A DNA stretch of 64,000 nt from Flavobacteriales bacterium UBA5933. Lineage in GTDB: Bacteria > Bacteroidota > Bacteroidia > Flavobacteriales > Weeksellaceae. The stretch is from the NCBI GenBank assembly GCA_002430925.1, contig DJDD01000131.1, positions 20,935-84,934 on the forward strand. The letters are read 5' to 3'. The position numbers were made by a program, and so were the translations under genes. Under the pieces are notes generated by a model that saw only the letters and a list, made by a program, of their open reading frames with translations, was not told the origin of the DNA and ran no database searches. Positions 1,403 through 51,866 of the stretch are shown one piece after another (the first letter of the stretch is position 1; each line of letters starts with the position of its first letter).

Positions 1403-1510
1403 GGGCATTCCCTTCGGGCGGGCTTTTGTTTCAATCTTTTTAGATTGAGCATTGATTAAATATTAAGATGAATTCAATCAAAAAAGGATTTCCACGACAA
1501 TCCCTAATGC
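1403..1510 (+). repeat. Dispersed structured intergenic element, copy a
   Basis: GGGCATT-CCCTTCGGG-CGGGCTTTTGTTTCAATCTTTTT, then a 38-nt variable hairpin (GATTGA..TCAATC), then AAAAAAGGATTTCCACGACAATCCCTAATGC. It shares the architecture of the copies at 30804, 35416 and 51638. Confidence 0.8.
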
Positions 1511-1580
1511 GATATCATGTATATTTTTTATGAAATAGGAATGCCAAATTATAAATCTATTTTCTTTATAAAAAGGATTT

Positions 1581-1656
1581 GCGACAGGGATAGAAATGAT
1601 ATCCTTTATGAAGCGTTTAGCGAGTAAAGATAAAATGTATAGCCCGTTTGTCGCCC
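1581..1656 (-). repeat. Dispersed structured intergenic element, copy b (degenerate, mini-hairpin deleted)
   Basis: Read on the minus strand: GGGCGACA-AAC-GGGCTATACATTTTATCTTT, variable region, AAAGGATATCATTTCTATCCCTGTCGC. The terminal helix is GCGACA/TGTCGC. It lies convergent to copy a. Confidence 0.6.
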
Positions 1657-30492: not shown

Positions 30493-30810
30493 ATGATTGG
30501 ATTAGCGTTTATTACATTAGGAATTACAAGTTCTTGGAATGTTATGGTTTATATAATCATAGGTTTATTTTGTACAGGTATTGCAAGAGCTTTATTTATT
30601 GAAGAATATTTTGGTGGTCTTGCAGCTACTGCTGTAGTAGGTATTGTTGGAGCTTTTATTGGAGCTTATGTTCCTGTTTTGTTAGGATTACATGATTATT
30701 TATTTATGAGTCCTTTGCATTGTATTTTATCATTTTTTGTATCATTATCATTATTGTACTTATGGAATAAAATTGTGATATCATCTGTTGATAAACAGAA
30801 ATTGCAATAG
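30493..30810 (+). CDS. Small membrane protein, GlsB/YeaQ/YmgE (transglycosylase-associated) like, with a C-terminal extension
   Basis: Gly-rich TM helices: GGLAATAVVGIVGAFIGAYV. The last two codons and the stop codon lie inside repeat copy c. Confidence 0.5.
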   Translation: MIGLAFITLGITSSWNVMVYIIIGLFCTGIARALFIEEYFGGLAATAVVGIVGAFIGAYVPVLLGLHDYLFMSPLHCILSFFVSLSLLYLWNKIVISSVDKQKLQ

Positions 30811-30901
30811 CGATAGCAATGTAAATCCTTTGCTAGCAATTTTATGAGGCTAAGTTGCTAGCAAAGATTGAAATGTATAGCGCGTCCCGTAGGGATTGCC
30901 C
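30804..30901 (-). repeat. Dispersed structured intergenic element, copy c
   Basis: Minus strand: GGGCAAT-CCCTACGGG-ACGCGCTATACATTTCAATCTTT, then GCTAGCAA..TTGCTAGC, then AAAGGATTTACATTGCTATCGCTATTGC. It lies 8 nt downstream of the satP stop in the sense orientation. Confidence 0.85.
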
Positions 30902-30908
30902 AAATTAT

Positions 30909-31475
30909 TTATAAAGGCAAAACTATTTTTTCATATTTAGTATTAATCATGATTGCAGATGCTTCGTAAAAGGCTAAAAATCCACAAATAATTCCTATCC
31001 ATCCTGCAAATGAAATTATTTTACTATTTGCACAGAAGTTACCTGCTGCTAACAAGAAAAATAAGAGTGTAAGAGAGCCAAAAAGTAATTTTCCTGTGAG
31101 ATGACCTTTTAGCGTTTGTATAAAATTGACAAATGTAAATAATCCCCAAATGGCTAGATAAGAACCCATAGCATTTCCATCGGGCTTTTCTACACCAAAA
31201 AGTGGAGCTATCCATGTAAAAACTAAGGTTAGCCAAAAAGCGCCGTATGCCATAAATGCAATACTTCCAAAAGTATTACCTTTTTTCCATTCTAATGCAC
31301 CAGCAATAAATTGTGCTCCTCCACCAAAAAATACACCCATTCCCATAATCATACTGTTTACAGGAAAAAAACCTGCGTTATGAATGTTAAGAAGTACAGT
31401 TGTCATAGCAAAACCATATAATCCTAATGGTCCAGGATTAGCAGTTAAATCTTTAATTTCGTATTGTTTTTCCAT
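30909..31475 (-). CDS. satP: Acetate/succinate uptake transporter, GPR1/FUN34/YaaH (SatP) family
   Basis: Family signature NPGPLGLYGFAMTT near the N-terminus, with 6 TM segments. Confidence 0.85.
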   Translation of the reverse strand: MEKQYEIKDLTANPGPLGLYGFAMTTVLLNIHNAGFFPVNSMIMGMGVFFGGGAQFIAGALEWKKGNTFGSIAFMAYGAFWLTLVFTWIAPLFGVEKPDGNAMGSYLAIWGLFTFVNFIQTLKGHLTGKLLFGSLTLLFFLLAAGNFCANSKIISFAGWIGIICGFLAFYEASAIMINTKYEKIVLPL

Positions 31476-35120: not shown

Positions 35121-35191
35121 TCAATGGTTGCAAATTTACGAATAAATAATGGGGTAAAAAAAAAGATACTTAAATTTAGAGAATAAAAAAA

Positions 35192-35285
35192 GGCAAGCGA
35201 CCTACATCACACCGCTACGACCGTATACCTTTGCTACGTTCCCGTCCTGGAGGGTTCAACAGGAGCTGGTTGTGTAGGACTTGCC
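35192..35285 (-). ncRNA. ffs: Signal recognition particle RNA (small bacterial 4.5S type)
   Basis: Minus strand: GGCAAGUCCUACACAACC...GGUGUGAUGUAGGUCGCUUGCC closes a long hairpin. The apical domain IV is CCAGG-ACG-GGAA-CGU-AGCA-AAGG, which matches the conserved AGG/GGAA tetraloop/AGCA pattern. It is preceded by a TACCTTTG -7 box and followed by a T-run. The ends are approximate, within a few nt. Confidence 0.8.
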
Positions 35286-35290
35286 TGATG

Positions 35291-35298
35291 CAAAGGTA
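35291..35298 (-). promoter_or_regulatory. -7 box (TACCTTTG on the minus strand) of the SRP RNA gene
   Basis: The plus strand reads CAAAGGTA. The box ends 5 nt upstream of the first G of the predicted RNA. Confidence 0.55.
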
Positions 35299-35415: not shown

Positions 35416-35525
35416 GGGCAATCACTACGTGCCGCGCTTTATCGTTCTCAATCTTTTTTTGATTTGGCATTGTTTTTTGAACTTAGTCAATCAAAAAAAA
35501 GGATTTCCACTTCAATCGCTATTGC
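35416..35525 (+). repeat. Dispersed structured intergenic element, copy d
   Basis: GGGCAAT-CACTACGTG-CCGCGCTTTATCGTTCTCAATCTTTTTTT, a 32-nt variable region, then AAAAAAAAGGATTTCCACTTCAATCGCTATTGC. Confidence 0.85.
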
Positions 35526-35615: not shown

Positions 35616-36185
35616 ATGATAAGTTTTAATAAGATTTTCAAAAATTCTTTGATATTAACAGCGATTACATTAGTGCTGTTTTTCGGTTTATATTTTTATT
35701 TTTCTACGAATGGTAGTGTATCAGTAAAAGATTATTATACATATAGTTTTATGATATGTTGTTTCATACTTTTACCTGTATATGCAATATATTGTTTTTT
35801 CATGATATTTAATTTGTCAAAAAAGAAAGCAATTAATTACCAGAGTAGAGAAGATTTGATGAGTTTTAAAGAAGGATTTAAAGTAGGTTTTTATACTATT
35901 TTCTTTGCTGGTGCTATAAGTCTTATTGTGATTTTTGTGTTTTTTAATACAGCAGGTGAGTGGGCTCAAGATAGTCTGAAGCAAGGTCTTTTGGATACTT
36001 TTACAGATAATATGGCTGATCCTAAAGTAGCAAAGGATATAGAAACATATAGAAATTCTGATAGTTATAAAACATTGAATTTATTTACAATTAAAAATTT
36101 CTTTGGATTGTTTTCTATGTTCTTATCTTTTTATATTGCTATCTCTGCTTTATTTTCTCAATTTTTAAAAAAACGTGTTTTTTAA
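35616..36185 (+). CDS. DUF4199-family membrane protein
   Basis: Four TM segments, with the usual Bacteroidota position directly upstream of a C-terminally anchored GT2. A TATCTTTG box at 35604-35611 sits almost on the ATG, so the transcript may be leaderless or the true start may be internal. Confidence 0.55.
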   Translation: MISFNKIFKNSLILTAITLVLFFGLYFYFSTNGSVSVKDYYTYSFMICCFILLPVYAIYCFFMIFNLSKKKAINYQSREDLMSFKEGFKVGFYTIFFAGAISLIVIFVFFNTAGEWAQDSLKQGLLDTFTDNMADPKVAKDIETYRNSDSYKTLNLFTIKNFFGLFSMFLSFYIAISALFSQFLKKRVF

Positions 36186-51553: not shown

Positions 51554-51581
51554 TATTTTATCAATAAGTTATTAAATATAA

Positions 51582-51613
51582 AATCCCTTGCGCATGCGTA
51601 AGGGATTTTTTTA
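51582..51613 (+). terminator. Rho-independent terminator inside the spc cluster, after rpsN
   Basis: AATCCCTT-gcgcatgcgt-AAGGGATT followed by further T residues. Confidence 0.7.
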
Positions 51614-51637
51614 TTTTTAAATACAACTATATTTTTA

Positions 51638-51714
51638 GGGCAATACCTTCGGCCCGCGCTTTACATTCCAATCTTTTTCTCTGGAAAAAGGATTTCCACT
51701 CCAATCGCTATTGC
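51638..51714 (+). repeat. Dispersed structured intergenic element, copy e (shortest, 6-nt centre)
   Basis: GGGCAAT-ACCTTCGGC-CCGCGCTTTACATTCCAATCTTTTT-CTCTGG-AAAAAGGATTTCCACTCCAATCGCTATTGC. Confidence 0.85.
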
Positions 51715-51756
51715 AGTAGAATAAAACGGTTTAAATAAAATAAATTTCATTAATAG

Positions 51757-51786
51757 TTTGTAATTAAAAAATATACCATATATTTG
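51757..51786 (+). promoter_or_regulatory. Candidate promoter for rpsH and downstream genes (-33 TTTG, 18-nt spacer, -7 TATATTTG)
   Basis: TTTG at 51757-51760 and TATATTTG at 51779-51786. Followed by the leader hairpin AAATGCA-tag-TGCATTT at 51793-51809. Confidence 0.5.
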
Positions 51787-51866
51787 CAACCCAAATGCAT
51801 AGTGCATTTAGATTAAAAGTTTAATTTTAAAAGTAGTGTTTTAGCGCTATACTATAGAATTATATT

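Follow-up and report, generated by a model that had tools for sequence, protein, structure and literature searches.

Flavo-1 (Rfam RF01705) was defined by Weinberg et al. in 2010 as a motif of Flavobacteria, other Bacteroidetes and some Spirochaetes, which is the only comment given on it (PMC2864571), and it is among the most abundant of the families that Rfam files as small RNAs (sRNAs; PMC9029176). The 128 copies of Flavobacterium psychrophilum lie sense or antisense to transcribed regions and many are untranscribed; the transcriptome shows no consistent transcription of the copies, some of which stand in 5' untranslated regions (UTRs; ftsY, alaS, valS) and inside operons, and no functional conclusion was drawn (PMC9723704). 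Five copies of this family lie in the 64-kb window analysed here (the whole stretch of DNA under study, from contig DJDD01000131.1 of Flavobacteriales bacterium UBA5933), where an earlier reading of the letters alone, the original prediction, had described them as a dispersed family of folded intergenic elements. We propose, at a probability of about 0.45, that Flavo-1 is a dispersed module akin to the repetitive extragenic palindromes (REPs) and bacterial interspersed mosaic elements (BIMEs), whose folded single strand, most likely DNA and in the orientation of the Rfam model, would be read by a trans-acting enzyme of single-stranded DNA (ssDNA). The elements were originally read in the opposite orientation; the two strands are called the original strand and the Rfam strand throughout.

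The five elements are copies of Flavo-1

A covariance model (R1), which encodes a three-way junction in the original orientation and was built from 12 copies from other genomes only, gives exactly five matches in the window at E<=1 (42.5-68.5 bits, E-values 3e-8 to 1e-14). It thereby recovers the five predicted copies, a to e, to the base, and no further ones. The right-arm core by itself, at up to three mismatches, is matched four times in the window against 0.1 expected from shuffles. RF01705, whose gathering score is 42 bits, matches all five on the strand opposite to the original orientation (copy a on the minus strand, copy c on the plus strand), and the cmscan alignments span model positions 1-76 in every copy: c (55.7 bits), e (48.7 bits) and a (45.4 bits) score above gathering in the scan of the window, d (40.8 bits) and b (37.6 bits) just under it in local scans, with E-values of 1e-7 and 1e-6. 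The core is the one that defines the Rfam family (GAUUG-GAA-GY-GGA-AAUCC, U-run, tip, A-run, GAUUG-RA-RC-GGA-AAGC), as are the long hairpin with its two internal loops and its terminal stem of variable length, and the main host taxa are the same (Flavobacteriia and other Bacteroidota, some Spirochaetes). Other Rfam families give chance-level matches only at the five loci, and in the window the elements bear no relation to tRNA or tmRNA. That the five are copies of Flavo-1 is practically certain, and the novelty claimed for the family falls away with the match.

Architecture and covariation

The five window copies alone yield, by RNAalifold, a closing helix, a long arm with internal loops and a mini-hairpin, with double-sided changes in 15 of the 24 pairs. 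The counts in a wider sample are based on an exact-pattern scan with one genome per species, which lists at least 119 loci from Flavobacteriales, Chitinophagales, Sphingobacteriales, Cytophagales, metagenome-assembled genomes (MAGs) of Bacteroidales, termite-gut Spirochaetes and Leptospirales; across these, the first viral loci and the window together, R1 finds 152 copies. When 114 copies from other genomes are aligned by fitting to the model, a procedure that leans towards structure, pairing extends to 97.3% of the cells, double-sided (compensatory) changes occur in 20 of 23 pairs and compensatory cells number 331, where shuffles give 75; if the partners are shifted by a single column, the pairing drops to 57-59%.

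Read in the original orientation, the element begins with GGGC-N3, the last five bases of which are the 5' strand of the closing helix P1, followed by the hairpin P3 (4 to ~60 nt). There follow NNG (the 5' strand of P2a, the helix with which the long arm P2 begins), CTTTYCGYTNCAATC, a T-run, a tip of 5 to ~90 nt and an A-run; the descending side consists of GGATTTCCRCTNCAAT, NNN (the 3' strand of P2a), a single T and N3-GC (the 3' strand of P1). P1 takes many compensated forms, among them GCGTT/AACGC, GCGTG/CACGC, GCATT/AATGC, GCAAT/ATTGC, GCGGC/GCCGC, GCGCC/GGCGC and GCGAC/GTCGC. The fold originally proposed, a three-way junction maintained by selection, in which the ends are conserved and the centre varies, is thus upheld by the covariation of the 114 copies and by RNAalifold, and its details stand as well: the variants of the outer helix, including GCGAC(A)/(T)GTCGC in copy b, and of the next helix, P2a, in each copy (Table 1), the presence of the mini-hairpin P3 in a, c, d and e and its loss from b, and the pairing of AATC with GATT and of T-run with A-run around the variable tip. 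In the flanks only TTT directly on the 5' side (0.71-0.87 T) and two purines (RR) directly on the 3' side are conserved. RF01705 models the long arm only and leaves its flanks unpaired; P1, P3 and the TTT/GGGC boundary lie outside it, and they therefore refine the published motif.

Two sequence variants accompany this general plan. A 13-nt P2 tip, G-YTCGTNCCTC-RC (GAGGNACGA on the Rfam strand), recurs in different genomes (e.g. L003, L016, L071, L082, L094, L120), which suggests that the tip is not always free to vary, and a second subtype of the element has the form GGCTGYCRCTWCAATC ... GGATTTTCGYTTGCAT.

Dispersal, doublets and a rearrangement between copies

The copies are dispersed among housekeeping genes, at a density that is highly uneven: five in the 64-kb window and 128 in F. 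psychrophilum, as against one in the pyrG loci of 80 other Flavobacteriia, which total 464 kb. The latter, metagenome loci anchored on pyrG, served as an unbiased density sample; since they are almost free of copies, copy d is not a conserved feature of the pyrG-ffs region. The best relative among them is only 77% identical, and they yielded no pair of filled and empty sites. Insertion leaves no visible target-site duplication, identical flanking k-mers (k=2-6) being no commoner than after re-pairing of the flanks. Adjacent copies stand tail to tail in eight cases and head to head in none; three doublets join a main-type copy to a copy of the second subtype through a homologous 47-nt spacer, and copies a and b of the window form a tail-to-tail inverted doublet with a 70-nt gap. 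A possible fragment of a third copy, directly abutting b, is a weak match to R1 (filters off; 9.8 bits, E=0.03 in a 500-nt search, model positions 34-66). All-against-all clustering of 783 open reading frames (ORFs) around 119 listed copies reveals no recurrent neighbouring protein beyond orthologous Chitinophaga loci. Neither this clustering nor a scan of the fetched loci for the Y1/HUH motif places a RAYT next to any copy, and a fuzzy search for half-sites lying apart with an ORF between them, as a parent element would have, gave noise only.

At one site, between rpsN (S14) and rpsH (S8), a natural rearrangement has its breakpoints in two copies. The S14 and S8 proteins of the window are identical to those of the Flavobacteriales MAG UBA7612 and relatives, and more distant genomes with an identical S14 have no element between the two genes. 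The closest relatives (MAG UBA7612, GCA_032076765.1 and a contig from sample ERZ27268610) have the order S14, terminator, degenerate copy 1, reversed thiamine cluster (~4-6 kb), copy 2, promoter, S8. The single copy of the window, e, looks like a hybrid of the two: its upstream flank matches that of copy 1, its body and downstream flank match copy 2, and the junction falls within the shared GGCAAT at the 5' end of the element. One copy plus cargo has thus been inserted or deleted precisely between equivalent positions of direct copies, an outcome that site-specific cleavage would produce. The orthologous copies also form a compensatory series at one core pair, which is G-C in L138, A.C in the window and A-T in L140. 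The cluster itself encodes HAD, TenA, ThiD and ThiM and lies between two direct Flavo-1 copies; in L137 it occurs without the first copy, and L137 and L128 are too diverged for their comparison as empty and filled sites to give an insertion point.

Single-stranded-DNA phages and plasmids

Three scans of IMG/VR, followed by R1, leave 28 viral contigs with true copies, at least 12 of which are Microviridae or Inoviridae; among 75 pattern-only control contigs none carries ssDNA-phage markers. Such markers are absent from the vicinity of the chromosomal copies, and BLAST against GenBank phages returns short weak matches only, several of them in microviruses. The packaged (gene-sense) strand is the one with the Rfam strand of the element in all six marker-verified inoviruses. 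Their copies are long forms (153-158 nt), consisting of the conserved platform and a distal hairpin of ~95 nt, and occupy no conserved position in the genome. Two of them, in L249 and L251, are nearly identical, with flanks that cannot be aligned up to TTT/GGGC on one side and up to the final GC on the other; the boundaries of the element are sharp and the flanks unrelated. The L251 contig also contains a match to sRNA-Xcc1 (RF02221, 53.6 bits; gathering 53).

BLAST against plasmids, again followed by R1, finds long forms in F-like MOBF plasmids of Moraxella ovis (two copies), M. bovoculi (four) and M. catarrhalis (one). All are co-oriented with the small genes, an antirestriction gene included, that lie between rep and the operon of the type IV coupling protein (T4CP) and MobF; in M. 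bovoculi the repeated unit is larger than the element itself, by ~85 nt on the upstream and ~35 nt on the downstream side. The same arrangement has been described for the Frpo/ssi single-strand promoters of plasmid leading regions (PMC11541004). By analogy with the layout of F or R388, from which the position of the transfer origin (oriT) is taken, the transferred strand of the Moraxella plasmids would carry the Rfam strand. As ssDNA the long forms fold far better than shuffled sequence (z = -5.5 and -7.9). A plasmid of Paraclostridium bifermentans carries two short forms. Moraxella (Gammaproteobacteria) and Paraclostridium (Bacillota) lie outside the described host range of Flavo-1, and RF01705 at its gathering score sees short copies only, missing the 150-160-nt long forms of inoviruses and Moraxella plasmids.

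These occurrences would be accounted for if Flavo-1 were a single-strand initiation signal, comparable to the complementary-strand origins of G4 and M13, to plasmid single-strand initiation sites (ssi/Frpo) and to the single-strand origins (sso) of rolling-circle replicons. Primase or RNA polymerase would be drawn to the folded Rfam strand and begin RNA synthesis across from its unpaired CCC foot. The resulting primer would have GGGC... at its start, as the original strand has at its 5' end, and the chromosomal short forms would be derived or secondary. Such a signal would agree with the enrichment in ssDNA phages (12 or more of the 28 viral contigs, 0 of 75 controls), with the folding of the long forms as ssDNA and with the conserved TTT/GGGC boundary, and its cross-phylum conservation would suit a signal that a universal host machine recognises; the stem, however, contains no recognisable -35/-10 or Bacteroidota -33/-7 elements. 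Location on the single strand fits all six inoviruses, in which the Rfam strand is packaged, but five of six microviruses have the opposite orientation, and the place of the element in inovirus genomes varies. In the Moraxella plasmids, one to four co-oriented copies by the antirestriction gene, upstream of the T4CP-MobF genes, recall Frpo/ssi; here the fit holds only if oriT lies upstream of the T4CP-MobF operon, oriT position and transferred strand being inferred. On the chromosome, such a signal by itself leaves at least 100 dispersed copies and their multiplication unexplained, as it does their random orientation and their lack of replication-strand bias. We consider it rather doubtful. 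A broader version has a tentative claim at best: Flavo-1 would then be not an RNA but a cross-phylum folded-ssDNA initiation or promoter signal, common to Bacteroidota chromosomes, Microviridae, Inoviridae and, in other phyla, conjugative plasmids, recruiting primase or RNA polymerase at the CCC foot, and also a breakpoint or att-like site for the exchange of gene clusters.

The folding strand: RNA or DNA

The 3,070 paired cells comprise 2,964 Watson-Crick pairs, 27 G.U on the original strand, 38 A.C, which are G.U on the Rfam strand, and 41 other mismatches; wobbles, at 27 and 38, are thus no commoner than other mismatches. The absence of an overall G.U excess is unusual for a functional RNA and expected for selection at the DNA level or for young copies. 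Where the signals differ between the strands, most of them point to folding of the Rfam strand. Its wobbles prevail by 23:1 at core pairs 13, 14 and 22; on this strand the two 3x3 internal loops are purine-rich, the P3 loops are GAA, GTA, GATA or GAAA (the last closed by U.G), and the variable hairpins are more stable (tip 37 versus 11, P3 35 versus 20). The original CC-TTC-GG is thus better read as its complement C-GAA-G, which as DNA is a stable GNA triloop; the structure assigned to the elements in their original orientation holds, and the strand probably has to be exchanged.

The same signals would be expected of a structured non-coding RNA of the Rfam strand, binding a protein or a ligand and present in many paralogous copies. 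Covariation in all helices, tandem purine-rich 3x3 loops with G..A-type loops (including GAAA closed by U.G), the 23:1 ratio of core-pair wobbles and the greater stability of the variable hairpins on this strand are all in keeping with it, and some copies are kept at orthologous sites with compensatory change. The lack of an overall G.U excess is not, and neither are the patchy distribution and the high copy number. In inoviruses the Rfam strand is the mRNA-sense strand too, but it is the original strand that runs gene-sense in the Moraxella plasmids and in five of six microviruses; beside co-directional genes, antisense placements of the Rfam strand outnumber sense ones (40 versus 23), and many of the 128 copies of F. 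psychrophilum are untranscribed or on the wrong strand (PMC9723704). On neither strand do the flank profiles reveal a promoter or a terminator at a set distance from the element, as an independent small-RNA gene with its own promoter and terminator would require, and the Bacteroidota promoter TAnnTTTG, if placed at the 5' boundary, has TA positions that clash with the flank profile. We regard this explanation as unlikely; Rfam files Flavo-1 as an sRNA, and an independent RNA gene finds no support in the present evidence.

The copies point almost at random with respect to the genes around them: read in the original orientation, the listed loci include 40 copies that are sense to co-directional neighbours and 23 that are antisense to them, with 22 between convergent and 22 between divergent genes. 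Flank profiles, mixed contexts and patchy distribution agree with the original prediction that the element is not a simple cis-regulatory leader, and Flavo-1 is most likely neither a conventional small-RNA gene nor a gene-specific leader. A cis-acting RNA module that serves in any mRNA, as stabiliser, pause site or insulator (cf. REP and ERIC) and with no activity at the DNA level, would suit the copies of F. psychrophilum in 5' UTRs (ftsY, alaS, valS) and within operons, the slight co-directional excess (40 versus 23 in the original orientation) and a hairpin that is stable on either strand. It is nevertheless improbable: the spacers that contain copy e and many of the F. psychrophilum copies are not transcribed, a role independent of orientation would not conserve asymmetric internal loops across phyla, and the fixed orientation in phages and plasmids and the sharp boundaries are left unexplained. 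A classical miniature inverted-repeat transposable element (MITE), moved by a DDE transposase via terminal inverted repeats, is effectively excluded, for although the copies are short, numerous, intergenic, patchily distributed and of inverted-repeat character, there are no 2-6 bp target-site duplications beyond chance, the arms are poor inverted repeats in which mismatched loops are conserved while paired positions covary, and neither a parent insertion sequence with matching ends nor a recurrent transposase nearby was found.

A proposed folded single strand read in trans

The original prediction had left open an sRNA and a REP- or MITE-like DNA element; what is favoured is its REP-like element with a hairpin-recognising partner, and the sRNA gene and, for want of target-site duplications, the MITE are not. 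In the REP-like reading, Flavo-1 would be a discrete module, 75-160 nt long and present in many copies, whose active form is a folded single strand. On the Rfam strand, the 5-bp closing helix P1 would join two arms: P2, the long one, which contains a pair of conserved purine-rich 3x3 internal loops and ends in a tip of variable length, and P3, the short one, likewise variable in length and capped by a G..A-type loop. An unpaired CC followed by an A-run would form the 3' foot of the fold. This conserved platform may be read by a candidate trans-acting ssDNA enzyme, such as a nuclease of the HUH/Y1 type, a recombinase or a priming enzyme; what the data show are the identity of the element, its fold and boundaries, the behaviour of its copies and its occurrence in ssDNA phages and plasmids, and we infer both the kind of enzyme and ssDNA, rather than RNA, as the active form. 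Copies would spread or be exchanged without target-site duplication, gather in intergenic DNA in either orientation and form inverted doublets, and they could act as breakpoints of rearrangements. Those of the window would be bystanders to their neighbouring genes, transcribed only passively.

Several observations weigh against this reading. Purine-rich internal loops and G..A loops are also classic features of RNA, and at core pair 18 all seven wobbles fall on the original strand. An IS608-like mechanism, acting on the lagging-strand template, would predict an orientation bias, and relative to GC skew the chromosomal copies show none (60 versus 69). No HUH...Y (Y1/HUH) motif occurs in the window or in the other sampled loci, which total ~1 Mb at only ~8 kb per genome. 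The core is conserved across Bacteroidota, Spirochaetota, the Moraxella plasmids and the Paraclostridium plasmid, unlike the fast co-evolution of REPs and RAYTs. The packaged strand carries the original strand in five of six microviruses, opposite to the inoviruses, and the orientation counts derive from a small number of independent lineages (about five for the inoviruses, about one for the plasmids). The copy-bounded indel is a single case, which slipped mispairing at the 6-nt microhomology next to a hairpin could also explain.

Genomic neighbourhood of the copies

Copies a and b lie between divergent genes. Exact-protein look-ups of the ABC ATPase and DUF4199 neighbours returned no record, so that copies a, b and d could not be compared at the strain level. 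Copy c lies between convergent ORFs, the second of which is yaaH-like. Copy d lies between the gene for the signal recognition particle (SRP) RNA, 122 nt away, and the DUF4199 gene; the SRP RNA gene, upstream of pyrG, matches the Bacteroidales small SRP family (Rfam RF04183) at 103 bits. Copy e, the shortest of the five at 77 nt, lies between the rpsN terminator and a region with the conserved promoter and leader of rpsH. Here, with rpsN on one side and rpsH on the other, the spc operon of ribosomal proteins is divided in two, in the window as in L129, L132, L134 and L136: downstream of the strong intrinsic terminator there is a conserved promoter-like box, TATATTTG, and upstream of rpsH a conserved leader (CAACCCAAATGCATAGTGCATTT...), which may be an S8 autoregulatory site.

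Two matches elsewhere are incomplete. On a Bacteroides ovatus plasmid (NZ_CP081918.1) a truncated Flavo-1 5' half stands at the edge of an integrase-encoding island and directly adjoins an insertion of the IS1380 family (IS942). A contig labelled as archaeal (Methanosarcina sp. Ant1, MDTP02000069.1; L061) matched the core pattern, and later searches gave the right half only; this match may be due to chance or to a contaminating contig.

Table 1. Positions of Flavo-1 copies and of features mentioned in the text; L numbers are loci outside the window, and strands of window copies refer to the original orientation.
Feature	Locus	Position	Strand	R1 (bits)	Remarks
Copy a	window	1403-1510	+ (Rfam strand is the complement)	66.1	P1 GCATT/AATGC, P3 CCC-TTC-GGG, P2a GGG/CCC, P2 tip ~38 nt
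Possible fragment of a third copy	window	1554-1580	+		central AATC...GGATTT part only
Copy b	window	1581-1656	-	42.5	degenerate, without P3; P1 GCGAC/GUCGC, P2a GGG/CCC
ORF next to copy c	window	30493-30810	+
Copy c	window	30804-30901	-	66.3	P1 GCAAT/ATTGC, P3 CCC-TAC-GGG, P2a GCG/CGC, tip hairpin GCTAGCAA...TTGCTAGC
yaaH-like gene	window	30909-31475	-
SRP RNA gene	window	35187-35293	-		RF04183
Copy d	window	35416-35525	+	59.8	P1 GCAAT/ATTGC, P3 CAC-TAC-GTG, P2a GCG/CGC
DUF4199 gene	window	35616-36185	+
rpsN-rpsH split of the spc operon	window	51554-51866
rpsN terminator	window	51580-51609			strong, intrinsic
Copy e	window	51638-51714	+	68.5	P1 GCAAT/ATTGC, P3 CC-TTC-GG, P2a GCG/CGC
Composite doublets	L100	4558-4784, 6771-6995			tail-to-tail, 47-nt spacer
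Composite doublet	L057	3587-3822			tail-to-tail, 47-nt spacer
Copies at thiamine cluster	L128/L131	1856-1924
Copy at thiamine cluster	L135	1857-1979
Copies at thiamine cluster	L138-L145	e.g. L138 972-1048
Microviridae (6)	L002, L279, L298, L303, L308, L318				F-capsid gene and/or Rep gene
Inoviridae (6)	L249, L251, L293, L302, L304, L312				all Zot; some G2P or Rep_trans
sRNA-Xcc1 match	L251	6017-6100	-		RF02221
Moraxella plasmid copies	L327	3821-3977, 6735-6891
Moraxella plasmid copy	L330	5570-5719
M. bovoculi plasmid copies	L329	9714-9871, 12018-12175, 13901-14058, 14243-14400
Paraclostridium bifermentans plasmid copies	L328	5982-6067, 8811-8897			short forms, P1 compensated GAGTT/AACTC
Truncated 5' half, B. 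ovatus plasmid	L331	9001-9035			adjoins IS942

Comparison with known systems

The five copies are in themselves a rediscovery, Flavo-1 having been in Rfam since 2010, where it is still an orphan. What is added is a fuller architecture, with a closing helix, a second variable arm and sharp boundaries (TTT/GGGC...GC); a mismatch spectrum and a genomic behaviour that argue against an RNA gene; a natural rearrangement with breakpoints in two copies; and the occurrence of the element in ssDNA phages and Moraxella conjugative plasmids, where its orientation is fixed, and also in a Paraclostridium plasmid. If the active form is indeed ssDNA, an sRNA entry annotated in thousands of genomes would need re-typing, and the Bacteroidota would gain a counterpart of REP/RAYT or Frpo/ssi biology.

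ERIC/IRU, Correia (NEMIS), BOX and RUP elements resemble Flavo-1 as dispersed imperfect palindromes of ~100 nt with internal hot spots for insertion, and for ERIC compensatory evolution has been reported. They are confined to a single genus or family, and several have terminal inverted repeats and TA duplications, whereas Flavo-1 has neither terminal inverted repeats nor duplications and spans phyla. With integron attC sites and the folded attP of CTX phage, Flavo-1 shares, on the reading proposed here, a folded ssDNA form, and further conserved ends, unpaired internal bases and a terminal structure of variable length, and both attC and Flavo-1 can bracket cargo between two direct copies. The Flavo-1 consensus, however, lacks the R''/R' core sites of attC (RYYYAAC / GTTRRRY), forms no cassette arrays and has no integrase recurring beside its chromosomal copies, and in Flavo-1 sequence is strongly conserved as well as structure. 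Frpo/ssi, the G4 and M13 origins and sso are likewise structured, strand-specific modules of 100-300 nt; the shared sites are ssDNA phages and the gene-poor region near the antirestriction genes of F-like plasmids, with several co-oriented copies per plasmid. Flavo-1 differs from them in having no recognisable promoter hexamers and hundreds of chromosomal copies in random orientation.

In comparison with REPs, the foot of Flavo-1 is not GT[AG]G but, in most copies of the main family, GGGC or GCCC depending on the strand; its fold is a three-way junction where a REP is a simple hairpin, and its core is conserved across phyla where REPs are species-specific. TnpA(REP) proteins of subclass 2.6, found in Bacteroidetes, are associated with 'atypical' structures (PMC6006769); the one published example of these atypical REPs that was checked, from Owenweeksia, is not Flavo-1-like. 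The likeness lies in genomic behaviour. Flavo-1 and the REP/BIME and REPIN-RAYT systems of E. coli and Pseudomonas are all high-copy intergenic hairpins without target-site duplication. BIMEs and REPINs, like Flavo-1, form inverted doublets with a conserved spacer and have two subtypes; REP/BIME and Flavo-1 are both patchy in distribution, tied to rearrangements and expected to act as ssDNA.

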